64,000 bases of DNA from a candidate division TA06 bacterium (GTDB lineage: Bacteria; Hydrothermota; DG-26; E44-bin18). The translations under genes and the position numbers were made by a program. The stretch is from the NCBI GenBank assembly GCA_004376575.1, contig SOJN01000075.1, positions 15,842 through 79,841 of the forward strand. The letters run 5' to 3'. Of this stretch, positions 11,695 through 32,279 are shown in pieces (the first letter of the stretch is position 1; each line of letters starts with the position of its first letter). The notes below the pieces were generated by a model. The model made no database searches. It was not told the DNA's origin and saw nothing but the letters and a program-made list of their open reading frames with translations.

Positions 11695-11713
11695 CTCCCT
11701 CCTCCGTTGTTTC

Positions 11714-13024: not shown

Positions 13025-13042
13025 TAGAGTTTCCTCTCCCGT

Positions 13043-13774
13043 CTATTCCTCTTTTTTGCCGCCTTCGTCTTCCTCACTGGAACTCTTAGCGATAAGTTCT
13101 TTGCCTTCCACAACAGCATTGGCCATCAGACTGGTAATGAGTTTAATGGATCTTATGGCATCGTCATTACCTGGCACAGGATAATCAATAGGATCAGGGT
13201 CTATGTTGGTATCCACAATGCTCACTATTGGGATTTTGAGCCTGCAAGCCTCGTTTACCACTATCCTCTCCTTGTGCGCATCAACCAAATAGACCATCGT
13301 GGGCAAATCCTCCATAGCTTTTATGCCTGACAGCACTTTGTCATACTTCTTGTATTCTCTCTCCAGTCGGAGAACTTCCTTCTTGGGAAGGAGGCCAAAA
13401 GCTCCATTGCCCCGCATTTTCTCTATCTGCTTCATCCGATCGACAGTCTTTCTAATGGTTCTGAAGTTCGTCAGCATTCCTCCCAGCCATCTTTCAGAAA
13501 CGTAGAAGGCACCACACCTCTCACCCTCTTCCTTTACAGAATCTTTGGCCTGCCTTTTCGTTCCCACAAACAGGATCGTTCCACCTCCAGCTATGTTATC
13601 ACGAATGGCGGTATATGCCTCCTTCAGTTTCACAAGTGTCTTCTGGAGATTGATTATGTATATCCCATTCCTCTCCGCGAATATGAACCTTTTCATCTTG
13701 GGATTCCACCTGCGAGTCTTGTGTCCGAAATGAACGCCCGCCTCCAGAAGCTCCTTCATTGAAACAAGAGCCAA
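13043..13774 (-). CDS. rpsB: 30S ribosomal protein S2
   Basis: 243 aa; '[10 protein letters not shown]' S2 signature. Confidence 0.95.
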
Positions 13775-13826
13775 ACTTCACCTCCCTTCGAAAATAGTAT
13801 ATTGAGCGGCCTCTCCAGAAGAAGTA

Positions 13827-14219
13827 TCACCTCTTCGAGAACTGATACCTCTTCCGCCTTTTGGCCAGACCATACTTCTCCCTCTCTTTACGTCTCGGAT
13901 CTCTAGTAACCAGCCCTGCCGCTTTCAGATTACTCCTCAGCGTTTCGTCAAACGCAATCAGAGCCTTGGCAATACCGAGCTGCACAGCGCCGGCCTGTCC
14001 ACTTACCCCACCTCCCGTAGCGTCAGCCTTCACGTCGAATTTGTCAAGGTTCTCTGTCAGCCTCAGAGGCCGCTCCACAAGAGCAACCAGACTGTCTCTG
14101 CCGAAGTAGTCTTTAAGACTCCTGCCATTGACAGTGTTCTTCCCTTTTCCCAGAACTAACCTGACGCGTGCCACGGATTCTTTTCTTCGTCCGAGTGAGT
14201 CGTAGTATAACTCTGCCAT
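13827..14219 (-). CDS. rpsI: 30S ribosomal protein S9
   Basis: 130 aa; C-terminal 'GLVTRDPRRKEREKYGLAKRRKRYQFSKR'. Confidence 0.95.
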   Translation of the reverse strand: MAELYYDSLGRRKESVARVRLVLGKGKNTVNGRSLKDYFGRDSLVALVERPLRLTENLDKFDVKADATGGGVSGQAGAVQLGIAKALIAFDETLRSNLKAAGLVTRDPRRKEREKYGLAKRRKRYQFSKR

Positions 14220-14278
14220 TTCACCTCCAATATCAGAACTCGACCTGGCCCGGCAAAAAGGTTGAACCAGGAGAGTCC

Positions 14279-14707
14279 TTACAATATGAGCTCCACCGGC
14301 TTCTGAGCCTCGTGAGGATGCTCGCTGCCCCCGTAAACCTTGAGCCTCTTCATCATCCTGGCCCTCAGCTTGTTGTCGGGCAACATCCCTTTGACCGCAT
14401 GCCTTATCACCCTGTCAGGGTGTCTTTCTATCATTCGCTCAAAGGACTCTGCCTTCAGACTTCCTATGTAGCCTGAGTGCCTGTAGTACATCTTCTCCTT
14501 GCGCTTCTTCCCGGAAACATACACCTGACTTGCATTTATGCAGACGACAAAGTCTCCGTTGTCCACATGGGGAGTATAGTCTTTCTTGTCCTTGCCGTGC
14601 AGTTTCCGAGCAATCTTGGTTGCAAGCCTTCCCAGAACTCGGCCCTTGGCATCCACTATGAACCAGGTTCTTTTCACATCCTCTTTTCTCAAACTCTTAG
14701 TGGTCAT
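14279..14707 (-). CDS. rplM: 50S ribosomal protein L13
   Basis: L13 sequence begins at the internal Met '[22 protein letters not shown]'; the longer ORF to 14830 is an upstream extension with no L13 similarity. Confidence 0.85.
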
Positions 14708-14740
14708 ACTCTGGTCCGTTGTTGTTGATAGGTTGCGCAA

Positions 14741-14779
14741 GCAAACAGACAGCTTACCAGATTGGCCTTTTCCTGTCAA
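14741..14779 (-). promoter_or_regulatory. putative sigma-70 promoter for rplM-rpsI
   Basis: Minus-strand TTGACA, 17 nt, TAAGCT, about 35-70 nt upstream of the rplM start. Confidence 0.4.
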
Positions 14780-14857
14780 CCCCGAAACGATGCTTGTCTC
14801 ATGCTCCAGGCTATGCGAGAAAACACACAAACTCCAGCGTAGGGCGTACAGCGATTT

Positions 14858-15343
14858 TCAGGATTCTCGGCAGTATTTCTCTACTATTCTCCCGATAATG
14901 TCTCTTGTAGAGCGGCCTTCCAGGAGGTCGATTGTGACCACCTTACCACCAACCTTCTCCACAGTGTCCCTGCCTACAACCTCGTCTATCTTCCAGTCTC
15001 CGCCCTTGGCAAGCACGTCGGGGACAAGCAGTTCTATCAGTTCAGATGGTGTCTCGTCATCAAAGCTTGTCACATAGTCAACGCACTTTAGAGAAGCAAG
15101 CACAGCCATTCTGTCTTCAAGAGGAACGATCGGCCTCTCGTCGCCTTTTATTTTCTTGGTCGACGAGTCTGTGTTCACGCCGACAATCAACATGTCCCCG
15201 AGTTCTCCCGCAGCTCTTAGATACTCCACGTGGCCGCGGTGGAGGATGTCGAAACATCCGTTGGTAAAGACGACTCTTTTGCCATCCTCTTTCGCCTTTT
15301 GCCTGACTTTTACAATCTCTTCCTGTGAAACCACCTGACCCAC
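14858..15343 (-). CDS. cytidylyltransferase-like nucleotidyltransferase, HldE domain II-like (D-glycero-beta-D-manno-heptose-1-phosphate adenylyltransferase)
   Basis: 161 aa; 'VFTNGCFDILHRGHVEYL' HxGH nucleotidyltransferase motif; adjacent to an RfaE-I kinase homolog. Confidence 0.7.
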   Translation of the reverse strand: MGQVVSQEEIVKVRQKAKEDGKRVVFTNGCFDILHRGHVEYLRAAGELGDMLIVGVNTDSSTKKIKGDERPIVPLEDRMAVLASLKCVDYVTSFDDETPSELIELLVPDVLAKGGDWKIDEVVGRDTVEKVGGKVVTIDLLEGRSTRDIIGRIVEKYCRES

Positions 15344-15377
15344 AATCTCCCCTCAGGCCAACATGGATGTTTGGCCG

Positions 15378-16376
15378 TCAACTGCCTTCTATGGCATCAC
15401 CAGAGTCCTTGCCACATTCAAGCAGTTCCTGCCGGGTCACGACCGCAGTACCAAACTTGGAAACCTCAACGCTCGCCGCGCAGTTGGCAATCACTGCTCC
15501 CTCCCTCAAGGATGCACCTGCGGCCACGGCAAGGGTCATGACCGCGATGACCGTGTCGCCGGCTCCCGATGGGTCGTATATCTCTTTGAGTAAAGCGGGC
15601 ACAGACCAGAACCCCACATCATCAAGGAGCACCATCCCCTCAGACCCTCTGGTCATCAGAATAGGGGAGCCGTCCAGCCTCGACATCAGTTCTCTACAGC
15701 ACTCCTCAAGCTGGGTCACTCCCTTGATTCTCAATCCCAGGACAGCCTCTGCCTCCCTCTGGTTGGGCTTGAAAAGACTGACTCCCTTGTAGTCGAAGAA
15801 GTGTTTCCTTTTGGGGTCAGCTGTGCAGAATTTCCCGGCATCTTTAGCAATCTGTACAACCTCTTCTGCCAGACCTCCGCCAAATATTCCCTTATCGTAA
15901 TCTTCCAGAACAACACCGTCCACTCCGTCAATGTTCTTCCTGACCTCACTCAGAAGTCTACACCTCGCTTCCTCAGCTAAAGGTTCAGTGTTCTCCCTAT
16001 CAACTCTCACCACCTGCTGTGAATGGGCTATCACCCTTGACTTCTGTGTTGTATGTCTGTCGTTCGTCTTGACAATGGACGAACTGTTCAAACCCAGACC
16101 TGCTACCAAATCCAGAAGCTTCCTTCCAGAGAGGTCATCCCCCACAACTCCAACCAGCACGGGTTTTCCTCCCAGAGATGCAATGTTACCTGCCACATTA
16201 GCCGCTCCACCCGGGCGAATCGATTCGGATGTTATCTCTACAATGGGAACCGGAGCTTCCGGTGATATCCTTGAAACTCTTCCCCAGAGATACTCATCAA
16301 GCATCAAATCACCTATGACGAGTATCTTCTTGTCTACAAAACCAGAGACGAGTTCAGCGAACCTTTTCTTTTCCAC
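15378..16376 (-). CDS. carbohydrate kinase, HldE domain I-like (D-glycero-beta-D-manno-heptose-7-phosphate kinase)
   Basis: 332 aa PfkB-family fold; 'ILVIGDLMLDEY', 'PGGAANVA', C-terminal 'GAGDTV' motif. Confidence 0.75.
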   Translation of the reverse strand: MEKKRFAELVSGFVDKKILVIGDLMLDEYLWGRVSRISPEAPVPIVEITSESIRPGGAANVAGNIASLGGKPVLVGVVGDDLSGRKLLDLVAGLGLNSSSIVKTNDRHTTQKSRVIAHSQQVVRVDRENTEPLAEEARCRLLSEVRKNIDGVDGVVLEDYDKGIFGGGLAEEVVQIAKDAGKFCTADPKRKHFFDYKGVSLFKPNQREAEAVLGLRIKGVTQLEECCRELMSRLDGSPILMTRGSEGMVLLDDVGFWSVPALLKEIYDPSGAGDTVIAVMTLAVAAGASLREGAVIANCAASVEVSKFGTAVVTRQELLECGKDSGDAIEGS

Positions 16377-16932
16377 TTTTCAGTTCCTTCTCGTGAAGCG
16401 TCAAGAAGAGCTCCCTTGTCCTCTCAAAATACTTGATCGCGTTATCAGTCCGATAATCTGGATACGACCATCTCACCGGAATGAAAGAACCATGCTCAAA
16501 TATTAGCGTAACCTCTGCAAATATTCCACCCCAAAGATATATTCTATGAGAGAAGTTCTTCGTCGAGGCGAGCACAAGTTTTGAACCTGACACAAAGCCA
16601 GGATCAAGATTTACTCTCCGTCTCCCATCGGCGTCGGCCAGATCCCTTTCCATCCCAATCGCCTTCAGTTTTGCCCTCACTATCTCGGGCTGCGAAAATG
16701 TCCCCTCAAAACTGACCCACTCCCTTAAAAGGTCTTTCCCCATCTCAGGTTCGTAGTAGTCTGTAAAATCGAAGTTGATCAGTTCACTCCTGGTATCAAT
16801 CTTCCCGAATGCGTCCTCCAGCAACCTTTGAGCCGAAGAGAGAGCTGCCTCTTTTCCAATGAGGCCACATATGAGCTTGGCTTCGGGAGATATCTCCTCC
16901 AGCACAGTTCTCTTCTGTCCCTTCATCGCCAA
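16354..16932 (-). CDS. hypothetical protein (DUF4416-like)
   Basis: 192 aa soluble ORF with 'RVNLDPGF' motif resembling DUF4416; assignment from memory only. Confidence 0.4.
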   Translation of the reverse strand: MAMKGQKRTVLEEISPEAKLICGLIGKEAALSSAQRLLEDAFGKIDTRSELINFDFTDYYEPEMGKDLLREWVSFEGTFSQPEIVRAKLKAIGMERDLADADGRRRVNLDPGFVSGSKLVLASTKNFSHRIYLWGGIFAEVTLIFEHGSFIPVRWSYPDYRTDNAIKYFERTRELFLTLHEKELKSGKEKVR

Positions 16933-17690
16933 AGGTAGCCAAGGTAAATTCTGATAAGTTGAGCTCCCCAGAAAAGGCTGATTATTGAGCCTACTGCTAT
17001 GAAGGAACCGAAAGGAATCTCGGAGCCACCCTTTTTTCCCCTTAGAGCCATGATCGCCGCGCCCACGACCGCACCAAGGACGACTGAGAGAAAAAGACTC
17101 ACCAGCAAGAGCTTCCAGCCGAGAAAGATGCCCACCACTGCTGCCATTTTGATGTCACCGTCCCCCATCGCCTCCTTCTTGAAGATGAGCCGGCCAAGCC
17201 AGCCCACAAAAAACAGCACGCAAAATCCAAGGACCATCCCCAAAAGGCCGCTGACGATCTCCCCCGTTAATGCTGTGAAGATGAGTCCCAGAACGAGTGA
17301 AGGATAGATCACCCTGTCCGGGATGATCCGTTTGTCTATGTCAGTAAAGAAGATGACCAGCAGGGCAAGGCAAAAGTACCCGTATCCAAAGAATTCAATA
17401 GTCGGGCCGAATTTCATATAGACCAGCACAAGCATAAGAGCAGACGCGACCTCGACCACAGGGTATCGGAAGCTTATCCTCTGTCCGCAGTTACGGCATC
17501 TACCCTTGAGGAGGAGATAGCTCAACACAGGAATGTTGTCGCGTGACCTGATCGGCTCCCCACACTTTGGACAATGTGATCCCGGTCTCACTATCGATTT
17601 GCCTGAAGGAAGCCTGTGTATGCAGACGTTGAGAAAGGAACCTATGGCGAGTCCAAAGACAACAATGGCCGCGTACGATATGACCTGCAA
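16923..17690 (-). CDS. pilD: A24-family prepilin peptidase (type IV prepilin leader peptidase)
   Basis: 255 aa; N-terminal tetra-Cys 'CPKCGEPI...CRNCGQRI' zinc motif followed by polytopic membrane domain with acidic residues. Confidence 0.85.
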   Translation of the reverse strand: MQVISYAAIVVFGLAIGSFLNVCIHRLPSGKSIVRPGSHCPKCGEPIRSRDNIPVLSYLLLKGRCRNCGQRISFRYPVVEVASALMLVLVYMKFGPTIEFFGYGYFCLALLVIFFTDIDKRIIPDRVIYPSLVLGLIFTALTGEIVSGLLGMVLGFCVLFFVGWLGRLIFKKEAMGDGDIKMAAVVGIFLGWKLLLVSLFLSVVLGAVVGAAIMALRGKKGGSEIPFGSFIAVGSIISLFWGAQLIRIYLGYLWR

Positions 17691-18548
17691 TTACTCCTCT
17701 TTCCTTAAGGGACCTGAGGCAGGTTCAATCCTTCTCCGCCTCCAGTTGAATACGAAAGTGTCGCCGTCCGGAGCTACGGGCAGTTTCCGGACCAGGCCGG
17801 CCTCCACCAGCTCTGAAAGCGCATAAGGATAGCGGCCGAACCTTTTTCTGTATTCATTGACCTTCTCATCCAGTATCTCCGAGACGAGTCTCTTCCAGTA
17901 TCTGAGAGCAGTTACCTTCTCAACTTCGTTTTCTGAGCGGGTATAGATCTCGCCCCACAGATTTATCGCGGTTATCCTATCCCCACCCCTTTGGTATGAG
18001 AATGAGGCGAACCTGGCTGCCATCTCAGGCGCTCCATCCTTTGTGGAAGCCATCTCAAAATACTTCCCCGCCTTGAAAAAGTCTCTTAGGAAAACGTAGT
18101 AGATAAATCCCTTGGTGAAAGGTATTCTCCAGTTGTGAGGGTTGTTGCGCATCCCCTTATCAAGTAGCAAAAGGGCCCTCTCCGGCTCCTTTGCGTCGTC
18201 TGCAAGAAGTAAAGAACCGAACGTATAGGCGTCTGTGAACCTGGGATTCAGGGTTGTCAGGATGTCAAATATGTGACCCAGATATTCAAACTTCAGGTCT
18301 GTCAATCGGTGTTGGCCATAGTACTGTATCGCTCTCAGCCAGACAAGGTCTGCGGCCAGGTTGTCGTAGCCGACAGTTGCTACCCGCATAAACTTCCCTG
18401 ATGGGAAATACATCAATTCTCTGACAATTGCCTCTCTGGGTTTTCTTATCCTGTCAATTCTCGTCTGAATGAAGAAGACGCCGCTGCCTGCGGCGCAAAT
18501 GAGTAACCCTATGAGTAGACCATGGACAATTCTGGTGATACGTCTCAA
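17691..18548 (-). CDS. hypothetical membrane-anchored protein
   Basis: ORF 17691..18641 overlaps the upstream ABC permease by 97 nt; a TTG start at 18548 with GAGGAGAG RBS overlaps the permease TGA (TTGA), which suggests a coupled start; one N-terminal TM helix then a soluble domain. Confidence 0.45.
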   Translation of the reverse strand: MRRITRIVHGLLIGLLICAAGSGVFFIQTRIDRIRKPREAIVRELMYFPSGKFMRVATVGYDNLAADLVWLRAIQYYGQHRLTDLKFEYLGHIFDILTTLNPRFTDAYTFGSLLLADDAKEPERALLLLDKGMRNNPHNWRIPFTKGFIYYVFLRDFFKAGKYFEMASTKDGAPEMAARFASFSYQRGGDRITAINLWGEIYTRSENEVEKVTALRYWKRLVSEILDEKVNEYRKRFGRYPYALSELVEAGLVRKLPVAPDGDTFVFNWRRRRIEPASGPLRKEE

Positions 18549-19330
18549 AAATCTCTCCTCTGAAAGATGACCATGGATACGCTCAGGGCAACTATCGTGT
18601 AGATGAGTCCGTAGGTTATCGCATACACAATTTGAGACCACGGGACCGGCACATTATGAACAACCTCACCCCTTATGTTGAAGTTCGAAAGATTGGGAAG
18701 AACATAGTAGGCAAAGTTTGTAACCAGCTTGACCACAGCAGATTCTGAAATCTCTCCCAGTGCGCGAAGGTCCCTGGTAACGTGGCCAAGAAAGAAAACC
18801 GCAAACGCAAAGACTCCGCTGCCCACGGGCGTGGCAAAGGTGCTGAACAGTATGGCGATTGCAGTTATGACAGCCAGCTCAAAGAAGGTGAGCAGCACCG
18901 CTTTCCAGAGGTGTACGTGCAGGCTCCCTTCAGTTACTAGCACATAAAGGGTGAAGGCAAAACTCATGATGAGCACTACCAGAAACAGCACACACAACAG
19001 CCCGAGGTACTTGCCCAGCAGAAACTGCCATCTCTCAATCGGTTTTGGGACTATCAAGTAGGCAGTCTTTTTCTCTATCTCCTCATACACAAGCCTCGTC
19101 CCGGTCAGGATTGCGATAAGAGTCCCGAAGATTGAGATGGCAGCAAGGCCAAGGTCTTTCGATATCCTGGGCGCCTCCCCCAGGCTCAAGGGCCCGATTA
19201 TTATCCCGCTGGCCATGGTGAGTACGCCAAAAAAAAGGAGGACATAGAGGACCTTGTCTCTTATCGCCTGCCTGAACGTGTTCTTAACGACTGCAGCTAT
19301 TCTCAAGTGCCTTCCCCCAATAAGCTCCAA
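18545..19330 (-). CDS. ABC-2 family transporter permease
   Basis: 261 aa, about 6 TM segments, ABC-2-type permease topology; downstream of an ABC ATPase. Confidence 0.7.
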   Translation of the reverse strand: MELIGGRHLRIAAVVKNTFRQAIRDKVLYVLLFFGVLTMASGIIIGPLSLGEAPRISKDLGLAAISIFGTLIAILTGTRLVYEEIEKKTAYLIVPKPIERWQFLLGKYLGLLCVLFLVVLIMSFAFTLYVLVTEGSLHVHLWKAVLLTFFELAVITAIAILFSTFATPVGSGVFAFAVFFLGHVTRDLRALGEISESAVVKLVTNFAYYVLPNLSNFNIRGEVVHNVPVPWSQIVYAITYGLIYTIVALSVSMVIFQRRDF

Positions 19331-20255
19331 TCTCTTTCATGAAATGCTCTTCCAATGTTTTCTTTCTCGGAACGAGGGAAACCACCCGACCACCTGCGGC
19401 CAGTATCTCGCCTTGAATCTTACTGGCAACTTCTGGATGACTCACCTCTATCATCACTCTATCTCCGCTCACGATAACCCTCTCCCCCTTGGCCCCCAGT
19501 TTCTCCAGATGGGAACCGTCCAGCCCTTCGACAGTGATCTCAATAGATTCGACCTCTTCTTTCAGCAGTTCATCCAGTCTGCCCACGCTCATTAACCTCC
19601 CGTTGATCAGTATCCCCACTCTGTCGCATATCATCTCCACATCAGGGAGAATGTGGCTGGAGAAGAAGACAGTCTTCCCTTCCTTTTTCATCTTCAGTAT
19701 TATGTCTCTCACATCCCTCCTTCCGATGGGGTCAAGTCCGGCGAGGGGCTCATCGAGTATCACCAGCTCAGGGTCATTAATTAGAGCCTGGGCCAGGCCT
19801 ATCCGCTGCAGCATCCCCCTTGAGTAAGAACTTATTCTCATCCTACCAGCATCCCTGAGGTCAACCATGTCCAGGAGCTGCTCAACCTTTACCCTTCTTT
19901 TGTCTGTCCGCATCCCGAATATCTGGGCGCAAAAATCGAGAAGCTCCACGCCAGTCAGATACGGATAGAAATACGGCTGCTCGGGAAGAAAACCCATCTT
20001 CATCCTCAAGGATGCATTTCCCAGTTTTTCTCCAAAAAGAAGGGCTTCTCCGGAAGTAGGACTGAGAAGGCCGGTCAGCATTTTGATGGTTGTCGTTTTT
20101 CCAGCAGCGTTGGGACCCAAGAATCCAAATATCTCCCCCTCAACCACCGCAACGGAAAGCCCATCAACTGCCTTCACCTTCTTCTGCGCGATTGGACTTT
20201 TGTATATCTTTGTCAAGAGACGAGTTTCCAGTACTGGTTTCATTCTCTCCTCCAA
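19284..20255 (-). CDS. ABC transporter ATP-binding protein
   Basis: 323 aa; Walker A 'GPNAAGKTT', signature 'YSRGMLQR', Walker B 'LVILDEP'. Confidence 0.9.
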   Translation of the reverse strand: MEERMKPVLETRLLTKIYKSPIAQKKVKAVDGLSVAVVEGEIFGFLGPNAAGKTTTIKMLTGLLSPTSGEALLFGEKLGNASLRMKMGFLPEQPYFYPYLTGVELLDFCAQIFGMRTDKRRVKVEQLLDMVDLRDAGRMRISSYSRGMLQRIGLAQALINDPELVILDEPLAGLDPIGRRDVRDIILKMKKEGKTVFFSSHILPDVEMICDRVGILINGRLMSVGRLDELLKEEVESIEITVEGLDGSHLEKLGAKGERVIVSGDRVMIEVSHPEVASKIQGEILAAGGRVVSLVPRKKTLEEHFMKEIGAYWGKALENSCSR

Positions 20256-20299
20256 ACGCCCAAGCCCATAGTATATATAGACTTTCAGCCCCTGTCAAT

Positions 20300-20335
20300 G
20301 GAAAAATGGCAGGCCCGGAGCCTGCCATTTTTTCC
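20300..20335 (-). terminator. rho-independent (bidirectional) terminator downstream of pilin 1
   Basis: Perfect stem AATGGCAGGC/GCCTGCCATT flanked by A5/T6 runs. Confidence 0.75.
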
Positions 20336-20351
20336 ACAAGGCAACTCAAAA

Positions 20352-20858
20352 TCACTGTCCTGCTGTCAGAACCAGCACGAGAAGAGCGTCCTTTCCAAAA
20401 CCTCTGATGCTGTATTCCTCTGCCCAAGTAGATGCGCCAGTAGGGAAGCACTCATAGTAACTACATCCCGAAATCGTTCCAAGCGCGTTGCTCTCCCATG
20501 AATTAGTCGTAAGAAGGAACGGATTCTTGAACCCAAGCGGCAAGAGAACGTCGCTTCCCGACGGGCTTACACCATTTGCCGCACCAGCAATCGATTTCAC
20601 TGCGGTAGAGACCGTGGGATACCCGAGGGCAACCAACACTTCGCTTACCGTCGTTGCGCAGGTTCTGGGATATGCTCCCTCAGACATGGTCGAGAAGTCC
20701 TCGGCAGCAAGCTGGAGTGTGTGCATGTTCGACTTGAGCGAGGCTTCCTTTGCCCTGCTCCTCATCGACATGAAGTTCGGGATAGCAATGGCAGCCAGAA
20801 TTCCTATGATCACCACCACAATCATCAGCTCGATCAATGTGAATCCTTTCTCTCTCAT
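20352..20858 (-). CDS. type IV pilin (prepilin-type N-terminal cleavage/methylation domain), paralog 1
   Basis: 168 aa; leader 'MREKG|FTLIELMIVVVIIGILAAIAIPNF' class III signal with G-1/F+1/E+5; Cys pair in the C-terminal half. Confidence 0.85.
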   Translation of the reverse strand: MREKGFTLIELMIVVVIIGILAAIAIPNFMSMRSRAKEASLKSNMHTLQLAAEDFSTMSEGAYPRTCATTVSEVLVALGYPTVSTAVKSIAGAANGVSPSGSDVLLPLGFKNPFLLTTNSWESNALGTISGCSYYECFPTGASTWAEEYSIRGFGKDALLVLVLTAGQ

Positions 20859-20949
20859 TTGTGCCCCTTGCTGCCAACCTTCACAGGTTCCATTCTCTGA
20901 TCCAGAACGCCCAAGTCTATAGTATATATAGACTTTCAGTCACCTAAAT

Positions 20950-20985
20950 GAAGAAATGGCAGGCCCCAGGCCTGCCATTTCTTCC
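20950..20985 (-). terminator. rho-independent terminator downstream of pilin 2 (duplicate of the 20300 hairpin)
   Basis: Stem AAATGGCAGGCC/GGCCTGCCATTT; near-identical to the copy after pilin 1 and followed by the same 'ATAGTATATATAGACTTTCAG' flank. Confidence 0.7.
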
Positions 20986-21001
20986 ACAAGGCAACTCGAA
21001 A

Positions 21002-21517
21002 TTACTGTCCTGCCGTTAGTATCAGTACGAGAAGAGCGTCCTTACCATAACCTCTGATGCTGTATGCTATTTCCGCAACACCAGTGCCAGGAAGTGACTC
21101 GTAGTAAGTACATCCTGCAATGGCTCCAGGCGCATTGCTCTCCCAGGCATTCACCGTAGGAAGGAACGGATTCTTGAACGCAAGCGGCAAGAGCGGATTG
21201 TTGGCTGATTGGGGGGCTAGCCCGGCTACTGCACCAGCAATCGATTTCACTGCGGTAAGGACCGTGGGATACCCGAGGGCAACCAACACTTCGCTTACCG
21301 TCGTTGCGCAGGTTCTGGGATATGCTCCCTCAGACATGGTCGAGAAGTCCTCGGCAGCAAGCTGGAGTGTGTGCATGTTCGACTTGAGCGAGGCTTCCTT
21401 TGCCCTGCTCCTCATCGACATGAAGTTCGGGATAGCAATGGCAGCCAGAATTCCTATGATCACCACCACAATCATCAGCTCGATCAACGTGAATCCTTTC
21501 TCTTTCATTCGTTTCAC
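21002..21517 (-). CDS. type IV pilin, paralog 2 (tandem duplicate of paralog 1)
   Basis: 171 aa; identical to paralog 1 over the first ~85 mature residues, divergent C-terminal region; same Cys pair. Confidence 0.85.
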   Translation of the reverse strand: MKRMKEKGFTLIELMIVVVIIGILAAIAIPNFMSMRSRAKEASLKSNMHTLQLAAEDFSTMSEGAYPRTCATTVSEVLVALGYPTVLTAVKSIAGAVAGLAPQSANNPLLPLAFKNPFLPTVNAWESNAPGAIAGCTYYESLPGTGVAEIAYSIRGYGKDALLVLILTAGQ

Positions 21518-21591
21518 CCCCTTTCTACGTCAAGTTTGAAAATCCCTAGATACCTTATCTTAGCAGTTCTTCAATAGTTTCTATAGCATGG

Positions 21592-21607
21592 TCGCAAGAA
21601 GCGTGCC
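21592..21607 (-). promoter_or_regulatory. sigma-54 (-24/-12) promoter upstream of pilin 2
   Basis: Minus strand reads TGGCAC-GCTTC-TTGCG, matching TGGCAC-N5-TTGC; about 75 nt upstream of the ATG. Confidence 0.6.
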
Positions 21608-21786
21608 AATTCTGCCGGACCTGCAGAGCCAGGCCAGTATCATATTAAGAGACAGAGACTTAGGCCATCTGACCCGCCGTCTCATCAACTCCCTGCAACG
21701 GTCCATTTCTCGCAGGCTTTGCATAGTGCAAGGGTCGTGTTGCAAAACGCAAAGAGTAATAGAACGATACTGTTGTCCATGTTCGC

Positions 21787-23910
21787 CTATTTTTGAAAGA
21801 ACCAGTAGTGAAAAGAGTTATAACTTCCTATTATTTCAATAGTTGTCTTCTCTGAGAAGACAAACTGAGAAGGGACTTCTAGCACGGTTTCGCACCACGT
21901 GTCATTCCCGAGTGTCTTTATCCCAGCCCCCTCCAGCTTCAGGCCACTGACATATACATCAACGGGAGTAAATGGGGGCGCGTTAGAAGTAATATATCCG
22001 TCAGGAAGAACAGGCGAGTATCTGAAAGTCTTGAATCCTGAAACTGACCTTGTAACGATCCTCAGAGTCTTTCCTGGCAATGTGGATATAGTGAATCTTT
22101 CGCCCCCAAGGATAAGCCGCCCACCGTCTGCAATCTTTTTCTCGTCGCCATAGGTGGCAGAGTGTAAGCCTACATCCAGTCTCGCCCCGGACTCCCTGGA
22201 CAGAATCGAATATCTGCACCTTTGTTCATCTTCAAGGTAGCCAATATCAAGAGAATCGACAGCTATCCAGCCTTCATGATCAGAAACGGGCAACCTCCCA
22301 GCATCGACAGAACTGTAGTCCACAGCAAATATGGTCTGCCCCATTCCATAGATAGGTACAGGTTCGTAAACCTTATCACCAAACAGTTCATACAAGGATT
22401 CAATCCCCTCTGACTTTTCGGCGAAAGTGGACACGATGGCAATGTGTGAGGGCCTCTCGCCTTTTGTCATGTGTGAGACCTCTTCTGCGACAGCGCCCCA
22501 TCCCATTCTCCATCTACCGTAGAATCTGGCTGTGGTCAAGCCCAGGAGGTCAACTGTTTTCTTCCCCCCGTAGTATTTCAGAGCTCCAGCATCTACAAGT
22601 CCCAGCACGTCACCTTTCTTGAGCTTAGACCTCACCCACTCTGCCGGTTCCACGGTGGCGACCCGGACGAGCCGGGATTCAAATGCATACTGGACAAAGG
22701 AATACACAAGTCCAACGACCGATAGAACCACGAAGAAGGCGAGAAGACCATCCCTAAAAGAACGCTCGCCCAGCTTCTCGCCGAGAGCCGACGAGAGGAC
22801 AAAAACCCCTGCGACCATACATAAGATAAAGATCGGATAAAAAGGTATTAGATATCTGTGATGTTGAAATCCACTTGCAGATGTGAATGCGACGAATCCC
22901 ACCCCGATGGTGAAAACGGCAAGCAGAACTGTGAATCCAGAAATCTGCCGGCTGCGCAATTCTCTGGCAGCACCAGCAAAGGAACCGAAGAGAAAAAAGA
23001 ATAGAGCAAACGGCGCAAAGTAGGAGATTGGAGAGTGCCCGGCGAATCCGATGGTGGCAATGGACGGGTAGCCTGCTCCGAATATTCCCCTTATGGTATC
23101 AAGCACATAGCTTGTCCCAGCATAGATAAGGCTGAAGATGTGAGGGTCTATCCACAGGCTCTTTGAGGATCCAGAACTGGGAGAGAAATGACCTCCGACC
23201 GCCTTGTTCATGACCAGGTAGGCAATTGAAATCGAGAACGGAAGGAGAACCCAGGCCCAGCCTTTCTGAAGACCCTTCAAGCCTTCCTTCAGTCCTCTCA
23301 GGTGGCCTGCAAGCAGAAGAAGGAGCGCGAGGGAGCACCCCAACACCACTCCCTCAGGCCTGCTTATGGTCAGCAGGGCACATACCACCATCGTCCTCTT
23401 GTAAGTCTTTCCTTCCATATCCCTCAGGAAGGAGAGGACCGAGAAGAGCAGGAGAGTGGTAAAAAGCGGAATCTCAAGGCCTGAAAGATAACCCCAGACA
23501 ATCTGTCCGTTTACCAAAAACAGGACGGCAGCAGGGAGTCCAGCTCCTGCTCCCACAAGCGCCTCAACGATTCTGTACATGAGCCAGGCTGAAATCAAAA
23601 GCCCAGCGACTCCTATTAGAAAGGCCAGAAGGAATAGAAGCGGCCCACGGAAACCTATCAAGTAGCCAAACGAAAGGGTGATCCAGTAAAGAAAGCTGGT
23701 CATGCCAGTGGTAGGCGCATCACCGGTATTATACTGAAATGGGTGGCCTGACACCAGTTGTCTGGCATATTGAAAGTATATGTAGGAGTCATCAGTGGGA
23801 AACGTGGGATGGCCGTCCGTAAACCAGTTTGAGCCCCCGATGAAGACCGCGGAGACGAGCAGACTCAAGAGAAGAAAAACAAAACCAGATCTCTTATAGA
23901 AAGGTCCCAC
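21787..23910 (-). CDS. large polytopic membrane protein, GT-C glycosyltransferase-like (ArnT/PMT/TfpW-like topology)
   Basis: 707 aa; about 12 N-terminal TM helices with an early 'DDSYIYFQYARQL' loop motif, then a ~300-aa C-terminal soluble domain; sits between pilin genes. Confidence 0.4.
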   Translation of the reverse strand: MGPFYKRSGFVFLLLSLLVSAVFIGGSNWFTDGHPTFPTDDSYIYFQYARQLVSGHPFQYNTGDAPTTGMTSFLYWITLSFGYLIGFRGPLLFLLAFLIGVAGLLISAWLMYRIVEALVGAGAGLPAAVLFLVNGQIVWGYLSGLEIPLFTTLLLFSVLSFLRDMEGKTYKRTMVVCALLTISRPEGVVLGCSLALLLLLAGHLRGLKEGLKGLQKGWAWVLLPFSISIAYLVMNKAVGGHFSPSSGSSKSLWIDPHIFSLIYAGTSYVLDTIRGIFGAGYPSIATIGFAGHSPISYFAPFALFFFLFGSFAGAARELRSRQISGFTVLLAVFTIGVGFVAFTSASGFQHHRYLIPFYPIFILCMVAGVFVLSSALGEKLGERSFRDGLLAFFVVLSVVGLVYSFVQYAFESRLVRVATVEPAEWVRSKLKKGDVLGLVDAGALKYYGGKKTVDLLGLTTARFYGRWRMGWGAVAEEVSHMTKGERPSHIAIVSTFAEKSEGIESLYELFGDKVYEPVPIYGMGQTIFAVDYSSVDAGRLPVSDHEGWIAVDSLDIGYLEDEQRCRYSILSRESGARLDVGLHSATYGDEKKIADGGRLILGGERFTISTLPGKTLRIVTRSVSGFKTFRYSPVLPDGYITSNAPPFTPVDVYVSGLKLEGAGIKTLGNDTWCETVLEVPSQFVFSEKTTIEIIGSYNSFHYWFFQK

Positions 23911-23938
23911 AAGTCTTCCTAACGAGTGCTAAAGGGGT

Positions 23939-24490
23939 TTAGTGTCCAGAGTGAAGAACTAGTGCCAGGGGTCTGCCTTTACCATAACCGCAGATCGAGT
24001 AGCCAATCGCGACCTCGCCATCACCTTTCACGCCGGACTCGTCGTATCCTGTGTAGTAGCTGCATCCTGCGGGAGGTGTTGCAGGCGGACCCTGAATGTT
24101 GTCCACTGCGTTACCACCTTTTCTAAAAGGATTTTTGAAGCCGTGGTGAGGATAAAGTAGAGCATATGGAGTGAATGGCGGAGCCCTCCTTCCGTCAGCA
24201 AGGGACCGTCTGAAGGGCACCTTACTTTCCCAGCCCGCAGGTACGGAAAAGCCTAGAGTTGAGAGGATGTCTCCTACTCTTGTATCAATGGACCCCGGAT
24301 AAAACCCTTCTGAGAGGGCGGCAAAGTCTTCCACGCTTATCTGAATCGTGTGCATGTTCGCCCGAAGCGCAGCCTCATAGGCTCTGTATCTCGAACTCAT
24401 GAAATTGGGGACTGCTATGGCGGCCACCAGACCGATGATGGCCACAACCATCATCAGTTCAATAAGTGTAAAACCACTACCCCTCCGCAT
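23939..24490 (-). CDS. type IV pilin, paralog 3
   Basis: Real start at the internal Met 'MRRGSG|FTLIELMMVVAIIGLVAAIAVPNF'; shares 'FKNPF', 'GCSYY', 'LxLVL' C-terminal motifs with paralogs 1 and 2. Confidence 0.8.
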   Translation of the reverse strand: MRRGSGFTLIELMMVVAIIGLVAAIAVPNFMSSRYRAYEAALRANMHTIQISVEDFAALSEGFYPGSIDTRVGDILSTLGFSVPAGWESKVPFRRSLADGRRAPPFTPYALLYPHHGFKNPFRKGGNAVDNIQGPPATPPAGCSYYTGYDESGVKGDGEVAIGYSICGYGKGRPLALVLHSGH

Positions 24491-24544
24491 CTGGGCCCCT
24501 TCGAAGGTTCTACCGAGCCTGTTAGCCTGTTTAGGCCTAGTAGT

Positions 24545-24560
24545 GGCAAGTTTTGTGCCA
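24545..24560 (-). promoter_or_regulatory. sigma-54 (-24/-12) promoter upstream of pilin 3
   Basis: Minus strand reads TGGCAC-AAAAC-TTGCC; about 45-55 nt upstream of the ATG at 24490. Confidence 0.65.
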
Positions 24561-24789
24561 CAACGGCACCGGGTTCGTCTTTCGTAAGCTAAAGCTAAGG
24601 AAATCAGAGTCTTAGCGGAGAAGAACCGCACGAAGAGAACTCGAGGTGAACACGTTTTGAATGGTCTGACTGTCGCAAAACGCGGACAGTGAAACGAGCA
24701 CGTTACAGCCAGAGCACCGTTCTGTTTCGCTTTCGAGGGGACGCTCCACTGAGAGAGGCGCTGTATTCAAATAGAGTCAGTAGGTTGAG

Positions 24790-24812
24790 GGCTCCGCACC
24801 AGAAGCGGAGCC
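24790..24812 (-). terminator. stable hairpin downstream of cspA (possible terminator lacking a U-tract)
   Basis: GGCTCCGC-ACCAGAA-GCGGAGCC 8-bp GC-rich stem about 25 nt after the csp stop. Confidence 0.3.
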
Positions 24813-24836
24813 GACAATTTCAGACCACAAGAGCCT

Positions 24837-25037
24837 TTACAACTTGACCACGTTAACAGCCTGCAGTCCCTTTTCGCCCTCAACTACTTCGAATTCAACT
24901 TCCTCGCCTTCGGCTAGGGTCTTGAATCCTTCTCCCTTAATGGCCGAAAAATGGACGAATACATCCTGGCCGTCCTCCTGAGCGATAAAGCCGTAGCCCT
25001 TGCTCTCGTTGAACCACTTAACCTTACCTTTCGCCAT
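24837..25037 (-). CDS. cspA: cold-shock protein (CspA family)
   Basis: 66 aa; '[15 protein letters not shown]' RNP1 and 'VFVHFSAI' RNP2 motifs. Confidence 0.95.
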
Positions 25038-25085
25038 GCAACCATACCTCCCTACTCAACAGGTTTGCCGCGAGTCACTCAAATG

Positions 25086-25113
25086 GATAGTAGCGACTTG
25101 GGCGGCATTGTCA
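25086..25113 (-). promoter_or_regulatory. putative sigma-70 promoter of cspA
   Basis: Minus-strand TTGACA, 16 nt, TACTAT, followed by a ~45-nt leader with GGGAGG RBS. Confidence 0.45.
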
Positions 25114-25127
25114 ATCCGAATTTCATC

Positions 25128-26096
25128 TCAGAAGCTGTAAGACCCTGAGATTCGTGTTGTTCCTCCTAACTCATCGTGGTCTAGATGGGCGTAGTCAAAG
25201 CTGAACCCTTTGTAAGCCAGGCCAGCTCCGAAGGTGAGATGGCCAGCATCTATGCCGATTCTGCCTGACACCGTCTTTCTGTAAACATACTCAGCGCCAA
25301 AGTGCGACTCTCCACTCACAAGATCGTATGCAAACTGAGAAGCAACCTTTCTTCTGTTCTCGAATTTGATGTCCACATCTGCGGCCAGAGCGAATTTTCC
25401 TTTGGGAAAAGTGACAGGTGTATTGAGGGCAAAACCCAGGCTGGTTGTGGGCATAACGTATTCCCAGGTCCCTGTGTCCCAGCTTAGAACCGTTGTAGTA
25501 ATATCCCGTACGCTCAGGCCGAGAGAGACCTTCGAGTGGGGATTATAAATGGCACCTAGGTCCACACCAGCACCCAGCCCGCTCGCTGTGTACAAGTCGG
25601 CCTGAACGATCTTGAAGCTGCCTCCAAGCCTCAACTGTTCCCCTACCGCTCTGGAATAGTTGAGATAACCTACGTGGTAAGAGACGCTGACCCGTTTGTC
25701 AACTTCCGGTATGTTTTGTGGACCGGGCAGTTCGTCGGGGTCAGGCACCACGGTAAGAGCAATGTCATCAACTGCCAGCCTCAGAAGGGCAAAACCGATA
25801 GCGCTTCTTGCCCCCAGAAAATCCTTGAGAGGATGGACATAGGAGCCCCCGTCGCAACTGACAATCCCCCCGAATCTTTCAGAATGCTGCAGGAAGACCT
25901 GGCGGGTATCCATCTGCGAAGTGCCTGCTGGATTCCAATAAGGGGCGGTTGCATCGTCGCTTAAGGCGACAAATGCACTTCCCATGGCCAGAGACCTCGC
26001 TCCAACGCCCAGGCTCAAGAACTCACCAGCATATTTCTCTGCTTGGGAACTCCCGCTCAGAACTAAGAGGAGGGAAACTATCCAGATTTTTCTCAT
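25128..26096 (-). CDS. outer-membrane beta-barrel protein, PorV/PorQ-like (T9SS-associated family)
   Basis: 322 aa; signal peptide; 'FLSLGVGARSLAMGSAFVALSDDATAPYWNPAG' N-terminal motif recalled from PorV/PorQ-family proteins; alternating beta pattern; ends in aromatic F. Confidence 0.45.
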   Translation of the reverse strand: MRKIWIVSLLLVLSGSSQAEKYAGEFLSLGVGARSLAMGSAFVALSDDATAPYWNPAGTSQMDTRQVFLQHSERFGGIVSCDGGSYVHPLKDFLGARSAIGFALLRLAVDDIALTVVPDPDELPGPQNIPEVDKRVSVSYHVGYLNYSRAVGEQLRLGGSFKIVQADLYTASGLGAGVDLGAIYNPHSKVSLGLSVRDITTTVLSWDTGTWEYVMPTTSLGFALNTPVTFPKGKFALAADVDIKFENRRKVASQFAYDLVSGESHFGAEYVYRKTVSGRIGIDAGHLTFGAGLAYKGFSFDYAHLDHDELGGTTRISGSYSF

Positions 26097-26167
26097 TTCA
26101 TACTTTTAACTACCACAAGCATTATACCCTATTCCCCATATCCTGTCAAGGGAAGTTGAATTCCGGA

Positions 26168-26262
26168 ACCACAGATTTCACAGATTATCACAAGATTCCC
26201 CATTCATGGTTTTGTTAATAGTTCATCGATTTTTCTGTGTCAATCTCGTGGAATCTTGTGGT
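26168..26262. repeat. inverted-repeat element copy A (arms CCACAGATTTCACAG / CTGTGTCAATCTCGTGGAATCTTGTGG)
   Basis: Shares 17-nt left arm, internal 'GATTATCAC-AGATT' and tandem AATCT(C/T)GTGG right-arm half-sites with the copy at 34788..34912. Confidence 0.6.
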
Positions 26263-26279
26263 TAGCGGTTCTGTTTCCG

Positions 26280-26308
26280 ATTTTCGATTTTCGATTTTCT
26301 ATTTTCGG
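26280..26308. repeat. (GATTTTC)4 heptanucleotide microsatellite
   Basis: GATTTTC GATTTTC GATTTTC TATTTTC immediately 3' of repeat copy A and just upstream of the guaB stop. Confidence 0.8.
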
Positions 26309-26311
26309 GTT

Positions 26312-27769
26312 CTACTTGGTGATTTCATAGTTCGGGGCTTCTTTCGTAATGGTAACATCATGCGGGTGGGATTCTCTAAGCCCCGCGCCCGTCACTCTCA
26401 CGAAACGCGCCCTTCTCCTCAGCTCTCCCAGATCCTTCGCTCCGCAGTAGCCCATTCCAGAGCGGATGCCCCCTACCAGTTGATAGACCGTGTCTGATAC
26501 GGGCCCCCTATAAGGGACTCTCCCTTCAACCCCCTCGGGAACAAGTTTCTTCGCACCCATCTGGAAGTATCTGTCCTTGCTTCCTGACTTCATCGCATCT
26601 ATTGACCCCATCGCCCTGTACACCTTGAATCTTCTTCCTTCCAGGGTAATGGTCTCCCCGGGGCTCTCGTCGGTCCCGGCGAGAAGATTTCCTACCATCA
26701 CGCTGTCCGCACCTGCGGCCAGGGCTTTCACAATGTCTCCAGAATATTTGACTCCGCCGTCCGCAATGACCGGTACGCCCTTAGCTCTTGCCACTGCACA
26801 GCAATCCATTATCGCGGTCAGTTGTGGCACTCCGACGCCTGCTATCACCCTTGTAGTACATATTGACCCCGGCCCTATTCCTACCTTTATCGCCGATGCG
26901 CCAAGGACTATCAGAGCCTTCGTCGCTTCCTTGGTGGCCACATTACCTACAATCAGCTCCACATCTTTTATTGTCTCCTTCAGTTTTCTCGCAGTATTCA
27001 TAACCATCTCAGAATGACCGTGGGCCGTATCCACCACTATGCAGTCTGCCCCAGAATTGGCGAGCGCTCTTGCCCTGTCAATTGTGTCCTCGCTGATTCC
27101 CACTGCTGCGCCCACCCTCAGCCTGCCCAGCGAATCCTTGCAGGCATTTGGATAGAGAATCGACTTCATCATGTCTTTTGCCGTGATGAGGCCCTTCAAT
27201 CTTCCCTCACTATCAACTACAGGTAGTTTTTCCACCTTGGCTTTTCTCAGAACTTCCTGTGCCTTTTCCAGGCTAGTCCCCACGGGAACACTGACCAGAC
27301 CTTCTCTGGTCATCAATTCCTCCACCTTCAGACTCATCTCATCCTCAAAGAGCAGATCCCTCTTTGTCAGCATACCAAGGAGATTTCCTTCCCCACCGAC
27401 AACCGGCAAGCCCGATATGGAAAACTCGCTCATTAATTGGATCGCCTGCCCAATGGTTTGATCTGGCGACAAGGTGATGGGCTGCTGGATGATACCGCTC
27501 TCAGACCGCTTCACCCTGTCAACCTGAGACGCCTGCTCATCAATGGTCGTGTTCTTGTGGATGACCCCAATTCCCCCTTCTCTGGCGATGGCGATGGCCA
27601 TCTCAGCTTCGGTGACAGTATCCATTGCGGCACTCACCAGTGGAATATTGAGCGTCAGCTTCCTGGTGAGTCTGGTGGCCACTTCAACCTGCCTGGGAAG
27701 GACAGAAGATTTCCTGGGCACCAGAAGTACGTCATCAAAGGTCAAGCCATTCCTCAAGTCACCTTTCAT
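26312..27769 (-). CDS. guaB: IMP dehydrogenase
   Basis: 485 aa; '[11 protein letters not shown]', tandem CBS domains, catalytic '[11 protein letters not shown]'. Confidence 0.95.
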
Positions 27770-27784
27770 GCAGCTACCTCCACT

Positions 27785-30507: not shown

Positions 30508-30517
30508 ACCGGGCCTC

Positions 30518-32263: not shown

Positions 32264-32279
32264 ATTCGCCTCCCCCTCG

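Follow-up and report, generated by a model that had tools for sequence, protein, structure and literature searches.

The question raised by this locus is how two neighboring pilin genes came to be identical in one part and strongly different in the other. In the window (the whole 64-kb stretch of TA06 DNA analysed), pilin genes A and B lie in tandem; an earlier note took them for the products of a recent duplication of a unit of about 650 bp, followed by diversification of an exposed D-region as in antigenic pilin variation. The pair, the mosaic and the size of the unit are all borne out, but the age and the variation system are not. The most probable explanation (about 85%) is an old A/B duplication, the 5′ part of which was later homogenised by a recent B-to-A gene conversion of about 230–260 nt.

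The pilin genes and their products

A and B are, as judged from their sequence features, type IV pilin-like genes with a class III signal peptide (Table 1). Both products have a short basic leader, Gly(−1), Phe(+1) and Glu(+5), and the alpha-1N hydrophobic stretch FTLIELMIVVVIIGILAAIAIPNF contains both mature G14 and P22. Pilin A matches the N_methyl family PF07963 of Pfam (E 4e-9; 36 bits against a cutoff of 21.2 bits), and TIGR02532 is matched with 35 bits against a cutoff of 16.3. Sequence-profile matches in the PDB, which span alpha-1 only, are to the alpha-1 helices of Myxococcus PilA 8tj2 (E 3e-17) and Geobacter PilA. The AF2 model of pilin A (pLDDT 84) has a helix at residues 8–58 followed by a C-terminal beta-sheet, and a Foldseek search of the head domain against the PDB gave no match. 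The major pseudopilin of type II secretion, GspG, was considered and rejected: TIGR01710 reaches 50 bits against a cutoff of 88.85, over residues 4–66 only. Pilin A is 100% identical to a TA06 protein labelled 'type II secretion system protein'. For B, an alternative GTG-started ORF of 171 amino acids begins 9 nt farther upstream than the ATG version listed here.

Table 1. Features of the pilin region, in window coordinates
Feature	Coordinates	Strand	Description
Prepilin peptidase (PilD/A24 family)	16923..17690	(-)	Pfam A24_N_bact E 4e-37, Peptidase_A24 E 4e-21; same gene string
Sigma-70-like promoter, TTGACA-17-TATACT	20270..20298	(-)	Serves as candidate promoter of the ABC transporter/PilD gene string; 11/12 consensus matches
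Intrinsic-terminator-like hairpin after A	20302..20333	(-)	A-run, 9-12 bp G+C-rich stem, then U-run (UUUUU); dG -28.9 kcal/mol (RNA fold), z -4.0
Pilin A, downstream copy	20352..20858	(-)	ORF of 168 aa; leader MREKG, mature N-terminus FTLIELM
Conversion tract (acceptor), in A	20581..20837	(-)	Residues 8-93: alpha-1 and first part of head; dS 0
ABC ATPase gene 5′-end remnant	20863..20893	(-)	ATGGAACCTGTGAAGG... against ATGAAACCAGTACTGG...; right-hand edge of duplicated unit
Duplicated sigma-70-like promoter upstream of A	20919..20948	(-)	-10 intact; -35 decayed (TTTAGG, deletion)
Hairpin after B	20950..20984	(-)	16-bp stem, then interrupted U-tract UUUCUUC; dG -35.3 kcal/mol, z -6.6
Pilin B, upstream copy	21002..21508	(-)	ORF of 168 aa; leader MKEKG, mature N-terminus FTLIELM
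Donor segment, in B	21231..21487	(-)	Matches tract in A; grouped with it in 5′ tree at 99% bootstrap
Sigma-54 type -24/-12 promoter TGGCACGCTTCTTGC	21594..21608	(-)	100 nt upstream of B ATG; exact match
GT-C fold membrane glycosyltransferase (predicted)	21787..23910	(-)	707 aa; directly downstream of C, upstream of B; AF2 and Foldseek
Pilin C, distant third paralog	23939..24490	(-)	183 aa, 43% identical to A
Sigma-54 type promoter TGGCACAAAACTTGC	24546..24560	(-)	70 nt upstream of C ATG; exact match; kept in L001, L074, L152

The A and B proteins differ at residues 2 and 84 only within residues 1–93, and are 60% identical from residue 94 on, with the C-terminus GKDALLVL(V/I)LTAGQ conserved as had been noticed. 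Cysteines are located at residues 67 and 132 of the pilins, with an additional one at 137 in A. These flank no C-terminal loop, and a C-terminal disulfide-bonded D-region is thus absent. A disulfide between Cys67 and Cys132 finds support within the close relative group only; the two residues co-occur there, and are single or missing in more distant relatives. The idea of diversification at the exposed surface holds in another form. In B orthologs, dN/dS is 1.3–3.5 in residues 59–104 and 117–152 of the head, whereas A has 0.09–0.15 in its conserved parts and 0.43–0.81 in its variable parts, all of these figures coming from few, non-independent pairs. There are thus signs in the sequences that exposed loops of B may be under diversifying pressure; the cause of this can at most be inferred.

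The third, more distant paralog noted earlier is also present: pilin C lies 2.43 kb upstream of B and has orthologs in four relatives (L001, L074, L152 and L156).

Age of the duplication and origin of the mosaic

Alignment of the two genes at the nucleotide level, proposed as a check on the mosaic, gives a sharply bipartite result rather than uniform divergence. A and B are exactly identical over 228 nt (20610..20837 = 21260..21487); beyond this block, a 2-nt mismatch is followed by 27 further identical nucleotides (20581..20607 in A), and the 3′ halves are 74% identical. A repeat search gives segments of 282 nt at 98% identity, at a spacing of 650 nt that is the offset between the genes and the size of the duplicated unit, and of 119 nt at 87%, 97 nt at 85% and 34 nt at 94%. 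A run of identity of this length is not expected by permutation, either for all sites or for polymorphic sites alone (p ≤ 1e-5). Synonymous sites have the same pattern: dS between A and B is 0 over the 54 synonymous sites of codons 10–83, but reaches 0.565 in the 3′ half, and is still 0.41 in the last 18 codons, which encode the conserved C-terminus. The non-coding flanks are 85–94% identical.

The relatives that are informative for dating the duplication were obtained by exact-protein look-ups, together with two metagenome contigs; a scan of a genome collection with one genome per species had given no relative nearer than 50% identity. Four further lineages (L001/L002, L003, L004 and L157) carry both A and B with the gene order unchanged: in each of these five loci the GT-C gene precedes the pair and the ABC ATPase gene follows it. 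In two more distant relatives (L152 and L074), one pilin copy occupies that position. Copy number, which the earlier note proposed to compare, therefore varies among the relatives. In the relatives, the 5′ halves of A and B are 10–14% different, with 22–33 mostly synonymous differences within the stretch corresponding to the 228 nt, a longest identical run of 24–37 nt, and a dS over codons 10–83 of 0.35 (L001), 0.27 (L003) and 0.34 (L004). The presence of the pair in relatives, the orthology of its 3′ halves, the 3′ dS and the divergence of the flanks together indicate that the 5′ identity in the window is a secondary homogenisation of an old duplicate.

The direction of the exchange is given by neighbor-joining trees (200 bootstraps) constructed separately for the 5′ (228 nt) and 3′ (about 225 nt) partitions. 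In the 3′ tree, window A groups with the A copies of L004 and L157 (100% bootstrap), and window B with the B orthologs (96%). In the 5′ tree, window A and window B pair at 99% and are nested with the B copy of L157 (82%) inside the B group. The tract in A is 100% identical to window B, 92–95% identical to other B orthologs and 86–88% identical to A orthologs. Diagnostic sites in window A are A-type at columns 5 and 21, B-type at columns 39–169 and A-type again from column 285 (pattern aa/bbbb/a...), so that a B-type 5′ block is joined to an A-type 3′ half. The 5′ tree does not recover the A orthologs as a monophyletic group, and older exchanges may therefore obscure part of the history. Tract and non-tract topologies thus differ, dS is about 0 in the tract only, and orthologous pairs lack the tract, as in a tandem duplicate with partial conversion.

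The events may be pictured as follows. A single tandem duplication occurred in an ancestor common to the window lineage and at least four sampled relatives. The duplicated unit began about 25 nt before the start codon of the pilin, took in the terminator and the next operon's promoter, and ended within the first 15–35 nt of the ABC ATPase gene. The copies then diverged to a dS of about 0.3–0.55 until, in the window lineage, non-reciprocal recombination put nucleotides 22 to 249–278 of B into A. This wiped out the A/B differences across alpha-1 and the adjoining part of the head, whereas A remained A-type in its first 21 nt, in its 3′ half and in the flanks on both sides. The outcome would be two proteins with an identical filament-core and assembly segment and different exposed head surfaces.

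A recent duplication in this genome, with a head that diverged fast under selection and a 5′ half that had no time to change, would explain the mosaic pattern as such, and the dN/dS above 1 in variable patches of B orthologs would agree with it. But the synonymous and non-coding divergence given above is as old as the non-synonymous, the pair with its orthologous 3′ halves is found in four other lineages, and the 5′ halves are well separated there; independent duplications in the relatives are argued against by the common junction remnant. This reading is most improbable. Selection at the nucleotide level, such as that on an embedded RNA or regulatory element, might hold the 5′ halves identical without recombination, and the region does encode the most conserved part of the protein. 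The relatives tolerate their many synonymous differences in the same stretch, however, and an Rfam search of the pilin region found no family, which leaves this explanation with a negligible probability.

The contig is metagenome-assembled, and B-derived sequence might have been threaded into a truly diverged A, or strain variants merged; a second, independent assembly of the same population was searched for and none was found. Related assemblies do end or jump at the repeat: the L156 contig stops about 120 nt past B, and in L073, a possible one-copy recombinant, B is joined straight to an A-type flank. An artefact is nonetheless quite unlikely, given that the short identical runs in the relatives provide no common graph nodes at typical final k, that both tract edges lie within gene A with A-type sequence on each side, that gene order and the 650-nt spacing agree with those in relatives, and that a perfect 228-nt repeat hampers contig assembly rather than easing it. 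Programmed variation of the Neisseria pilE/pilS type, with B expressed, A as a reservoir and frequent conversion between them, is very unlikely, although several observations are compatible with it. A has no sigma-54 promoter and lies behind a strong hairpin, the A copy of L004 has a stop codon, and besides the one clear conversion there are possible short exchange patches in window A (columns 318–330) and in L157 (columns 316–375), together with the possible recombinant in L073. Against this, the tract covers the conserved half and passed from the expressed to the downstream copy, the reverse of a variation system; A is full-length, with ribosome-binding site and ATG in place, and evolves under purifying selection; there are two cassettes only; a search of 20001..25000 for G-quadruplex motifs found none; and a single event among five lineages is in keeping with ordinary ectopic recombination. 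The analogy to antigenic variation drawn in the earlier note is thus not upheld, and partial B-to-A conversion of an old duplicate is preferred.

Terminators, promoters and neighboring genes

The same hairpin follows each copy, as had been described. The 64 kb contain exactly two copies of the stem pair AATGGCAGGC-N5-GCCTGCCATT (20305..20329 and 20955..20979; 0 expected), and in both places a G+C-rich hairpin is followed by a U-tract as in rho-independent terminators, the U-tract after B being interrupted. The hairpins are kept in all orthologs, with varying loops. Both were assessed by RNA folding, as a simple terminator scanner skipped them (the U-run was counted inside the stem). The 21-nt flank CTGAAAGTCTATATATACTAT is likewise present exactly twice (20268..20288 and 20919..20939; 0 expected), but is not the anonymous sequence that it had seemed: it consists of the spacer and −10 box of a sigma-70-like promoter that was copied together with the pilin. 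Even L152 and L074, the outgroups with a single copy, keep the −35 and −10 positions of the original promoter (20270..20298). Of the duplicated promoter, the −10 box is lost in L003 instead of the −35; the ABC ATPase remnant is longer in that relative.

The exact sigma-54 motif TGGCAC-N5-TTGC is found three times in the window against 0.11 expected. It is located upstream of every B and single-copy ortholog, is absent upstream of A copies and is conserved in 13 orthologous upstream regions; these sigma-54 and sigma-70 assignments were made by consensus, in a phylum with uncharacterised promoters. The upstream region of B is alignable to that of the single-copy orthologs, and B therefore retains the ancestral upstream region. 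As the keeper of the conserved sigma-54 promoter, B is likely to be the main pilin. Lower production of A, or production under other conditions, is probable, because A lies behind the strong hairpin of B and has only a decayed copy of the sigma-70-like promoter. We infer such expression levels, and any co-assembly of A and B, from the arrangement of the locus.

The 707-amino-acid protein encoded between C and B gave no Pfam, NCBIfam or PDB sequence match and is identified by its predicted structure only. Its AF2 model (pLDDT 87.5) has a beta-rich periplasmic domain, and Foldseek aligns it to STT3, AglB, PglB, ArnT, Emb and Aft (E 3e-10 to 1e-6, probability 1.0). In an acidic motif of the first periplasmic loop, D40 is invariant and D41 at least 90% conserved, and two homologs carry the JGI name ArnT-like. 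This GT-C protein may be considered a candidate pilin glycosyltransferase. A and B would be substrates of the PilD-type peptidase encoded 2.7 kb downstream. The window ORFs scanned include none for PilB, PilC or PilQ (assembly ATPase, platform and secretin), and no RpoN, PilR or PilS gene was identified in the window.

Related systems and meaning

Similar tandem pairs of major-pilin paralogs are present in Pseudomonas stutzeri (pilAI/pilAII), Xylella and Synechocystis. In Neisseria pilE/pilS, variable 3′ segments are transferred to the expressed gene from many promoterless, 5′-truncated silent copies, and a G-quadruplex starts the process. Non-reciprocal conversion between pilin paralogs, with a constant N-terminal part and a variable head, is common to that system and the TA06 locus; in TA06, however, a conserved 5′ segment moved from a promoter-bearing copy to a complete downstream copy, and there are two copies and no G-quadruplex was found.

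Legionella pneumophila pilA1/pilA2 are likewise a pair of related type IV pilin genes, both full-length and at a single locus; PilA2 forms a surface pilus, while the role of the other copy is obscure (PMC13170364). The Legionella pair is about 72% identical, with differences along the whole length, whereas the TA06 pair is a sharp mosaic from recent conversion, in an uncultivated host and with a pilin head that has no structural match in the PDB. Each Sulfolobus islandicus genome has two pilin genes, pilA1 and pilA2, the sequences of which coincide in some genomes, and pilus-using viruses are considered the cause of diversifying selection on certain residues (PMC7217056). Two pilin genes, a conserved signal and hydrophobic domain, and diversifying selection are points of likeness, but that system is archaeal and its genes are not described as a tandem mosaic, whereas the TA06 locus is a bacterial one.

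In group IV pilA-tfpW of Pseudomonas aeruginosa, a GT-C enzyme glycosylates the pilin and protects against pilus-specific phages (bioRxiv 10.1101/2020.04.19.049825; 10.1101/150227). A GT-C membrane glycosyltransferase with a DDx motif is encoded directly downstream of a pilin gene in both cases; unlike TfpW, the TA06 candidate has no Pfam similarity, has a beta-rich rather than a TPR periplasmic domain, and follows C, not A or B. Major pilin genes are controlled by sigma-54 and PilS–PilR in Pseudomonas, Myxococcus, Geobacter and Xanthomonas (PMC6058289, PMC7170775). The exact −24/−12 motif upstream of B and C, kept in orthologs, resembles this control, but in TA06 it is a consensus match, and none of the regulator genes was identified in the window.

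A literature search on TA06 pili and on tandem pilin conversion found nothing specific, and to our knowledge TA06 is a phylum without cultured members. Partial conversion of tandem pilins is ordinary gene-family evolution and does not change what is known of pilin evolution. The locus illustrates how mosaic identity in a tandem pair can be misread: the half that is identical is the more recent feature, made by conversion, and not the remnant of a young duplication. There is a small chance that A/B, C and the GT-C gene make up a minimal module for surface variation, with two cassettes, in an environmental bacterium of the FCB group. If so, the pilus surface would be varied, as a defence against phages or grazers, by glycosylation and by recurrent exchange between a sigma-54-driven B and a weakly expressed A, and systems of the pilE/pilS type would have an evolutionary precursor here, outside host-associated bacteria. 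For TA06 itself, three pilin genes, conserved sigma-54 promoters, a linked putative GT-C glycosyltransferase and a prepilin peptidase form a coherent picture of the locus, which is a useful annotation and a reasonable start for work on phage receptors or adhesion.

The pilin repeat and its flanks

In the region 20266..21545, two full-length pilin genes, A and the upstream B, lie on the minus strand as a tandem repeat with a 650-nt period, detected by both local nucleotide alignment and a repeat finder. Of the repeat blocks, one of 282 nt has 98% identity and the others have 85–94%. An exact 228-nt match (20610..20837 = 21260..21487) is followed by a 2-nt difference and then by 27 identical nucleotides. 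Over residues 1–93, the only differences between the A and B proteins are at positions 2 and 84; beyond residue 93, identity is 60%. The sequence features described in the earlier note, namely the tandem pair with identical front and divergent rear, the shared hairpin and 21-mer flank, and the third paralog (C), are all confirmed as real.

Features of the pilin cluster (window positions)
Feature	Position	Strand	Remarks
Promoter TTGACA-17-TATACT	20298..20270	minus	consensus scan, 11/12 matches
Pilin A	20352..20858	minus	168 aa, start MREKG|FTLIELM
Pilin B	21002..21508	minus	168 aa, start MKEKG|FTLIELM
Sigma-54 type motif	21075..21089	minus	within B coding region, ~230 nt upstream of A start
Sigma-54 type motif	21594..21608	minus	100 nt upstream of B ATG
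707-aa membrane protein	21787..23910	minus	GT-C glycosyltransferase fold, predicted
Pilin C	23939..24490	minus	43% identity to A; 2.4 kb upstream
Sigma-54 type motif	24546..24560	minus	70 nt upstream of C ATG

The N-terminal methylation motif is present in all three pilins, and a prepilin peptidase gene lies 2.7 kb downstream. PDB profile matches are restricted to alpha-1 (best, Myxococcus PilA and Geobacter PilA), and GspG and other specific models score under their cutoffs. The AlphaFold pilin model (pLDDT 84) consists of a helix (residues 8–58) and three C-terminal strands; a Foldseek search of the PDB with this model gave no significant match. Because there is no C-terminal disulfide loop, "D-region", as the divergent part had been called, is the wrong term. 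The window ORFs that were scanned include no assembly genes.

The hairpin AATGGCAGGC-N5-GCCTGCCATT and the 21-mer CTGAAAGTCTATATATACTAT are each present in exactly two copies across the 64 kb (0 expected), one behind each pilin gene, and both hairpins give strong RNA folds (-28.9 and -35.3 kcal/mol). Directly behind the hairpin of A, 27 nt ahead of the ABC ATPase ATG (20243), lies a TTGACA-17-TATACT promoter, and the 21-mer corresponds to its predicted spacer and -10 box. Both hexamer positions are kept in distant single-copy relatives. In the copy after B, the -10 box is retained and the -35 box is damaged (TTTAGG, with a deletion), and in the related contig L003 it is the -10 box of this copy that is lost, which suggests that the duplicated promoter ahead of A is not maintained.

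Age of the duplication and transfer from B to A

A candidate division TA06 bacterium has a protein with 100% identity to A on a 97-kb contig that also carries B, and related contigs (L numbers) were obtained through exact-protein look-ups. The tandem pair is present in L001/L002, L003, L004 and L157 with the same neighbours (the 707-aa membrane protein upstream, the ABC ATPase downstream), the more distant L152 and L074 have one pilin gene at the A/B position, and in L156 the B position falls at the contig end. Tandem same-strand pilin pairs are common among more distant relatives. Over codons 10–83, dS between A and B is 0.35 in L001, 0.27 in L003 and 0.34 in L004, and is 0 across about 54 synonymous sites in the window. 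In the window pair, dS is 0.565 in the 3′ half and still 0.41 in the last 18 codons, where the protein is conserved, and the non-coding flanks are 85–94% identical. Behind the promoter copy after B lies what is left of the beginning of the ABC gene (ATGGAACCTGTG...); the relatives have it too, and it marks the border of the duplicated unit. It follows that the duplication is older than the split of the pair-bearing lineages and younger than their separation from L152 and L074. In L073 (433..1100), the ABC gene and a promoter flank of A-type come directly after a B-type pilin gene. Either a deletion between the repeats, close to the terminator, gave rise to a one-copy recombinant, or the assembly jumps over the repeat.

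The test for uniform divergence proposed in the earlier note was run, and the divergence of A and B is not uniform. At A/B-distinguishing sites, window A is A-type at columns 5 and 21 of the gene alignment, B-type at columns 39–169 and A-type from column 285. Its B-type tract is 100% identical to window B, 92–95% to other B genes and 86–88% to A genes; its 3′ part is 90–91% identical to the A genes of L004 and L157 and 72–77% to B genes. In neighbour-joining trees of the two partitions (200 bootstraps), the 3′ part groups window A with L004_A and L157_A (100%) and window B with B orthologs (96%), and the 5′ part (nt 22–249) pairs window A with window B (99%) within the B group, beside L157_B (82%). 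A 228-site identical run was reached in 0 of 100,000 permutations, and the longest identical A/B run in the relatives is 24–37 nt. As both tract ends lie within gene A and the sequence beyond them is A-type, the event was non-reciprocal, and its direction was from B (donor) to A (acceptor). The recent duplication followed by diversification that had been proposed is not borne out by dS, the partitioned trees or the presence of the pair in relatives, and the identical part is a secondary feature. Short patches in which the A and B copies within one genome are unexpectedly alike (columns 318–330 in window A, 316–375 in L157) may be additional small exchange tracts.

Regulation and selection

That sigma-54 can govern the main pilin gene is well established for Pseudomonas, Myxococcus, Geobacter and Xanthomonas (e.g. 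PMC6058289, PMC7170775). The exact sigma-54 type motif TGGCAC-N5-TTGC occurs three times in the window (0.11 expected), each time on the minus strand inside the pilin cluster. The motifs upstream of B and C are kept ahead of all orthologs of B, of C and of the single-copy gene, and none was found in the intergenic region ahead of A; the motif internal to B was found again in L157 only. B would thus be the main expressed pilin, and A would depend on read-through of the B hairpin or on a weak promoter. Throughout 1..64000, all family-matched ORFs of at least 150 aa lie on the minus strand and long plus-strand ORFs resemble antisense shadows, so that transcription seems to run in a single direction across the whole window.

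A is under purifying selection (dN/dS 0.09–0.15 in conserved parts), with the exception of the A copy of L004, which has an in-frame stop and E5D. In this copy (3569..4075; closest relative), the Tyr codon of EEYSIRG is TAG instead of TAC, and the conserved motif NMHT has an M-to-T change; either the copy is in decay or it reflects a sequencing variant. Among B orthologs, dN/dS is 0.04–0.13 in alpha-1, the LLPxxFKNPF motif and the C-terminus. It is 1.26 at residues 59–92, 3.5 at 93–104 and 1.38 at 117–152, and 0.81, 0.43 and 0.45 in the matching regions of A orthologs, a pattern that is suggestive only, given small counts and non-independent pairs.

Neighbouring genes and known systems

The 707-aa protein has no Pfam, NCBIfam or PDB sequence match. 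Its high-confidence model (pLDDT 87.5) matches the GT-C fold of oligosaccharyltransferases (STT3, PglB), ArnT and arabinosyltransferases (Emb), with an additional beta-rich periplasmic domain, and a DD motif near residue 40 is conserved. In relatives, its gene always has pilin C on one side and, on the other, pilin B or the pilin present in single copy. It is possibly a pilin glycosyltransferase, because the arrangement resembles pilA-tfpW of Pseudomonas aeruginosa, a pilin gene followed by that of a GT-C enzyme that glycosylates the pilin (10.1101/2020.04.19.049825); in that species, pilin glycosylation guards against phages (10.1101/150227).

The stretch 17691..20243 (minus), which separates the pilins from the prepilin peptidase gene, encodes an ABC ATPase, an ABC-2 permease and a 316-aa protein without a family match; this order is repeated in L001 and L152, so these genes and the pilin locus may belong to one conserved unit. 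Type IX secretion components close to the pilin cluster are suggested by a PorV/PorQ-family outer-membrane protein (25128..26096, minus; NCBIfam 113 bits, cutoff 90) and by two proteins (28609..32263, minus) that carry FlgD_ig domains at the C-terminus, one of them with FG-GAP repeats as well. Related genomes have more pilin paralogs elsewhere, adjoining genes that encode type IX secretion sorting-tail domains (faint or weak Pfam matches). Close paralogs in L153 (6001..6504), L155 (3606..4112) and L158 (3247..3753) have Asp in place of the near-universal Glu5 (GFTLIDLMF or GFALIDLMF) and adjoin genes for large FlgD_ig and Por_Secre_tail proteins, which are type IX secretion cargo-like.

Pilin paralog pairs have been described for Legionella (PMC13170364) and Sulfolobus (PMC7217056). 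The A/B mosaic, for which the evidence is consistent, is a real feature of a kind already known. The description that fits the locus best is that of a tandem pilin duplication of old date, later overwritten in part by a recent gene conversion from B to A, in a putatively sigma-54-driven cluster of a TA06 bacterium.
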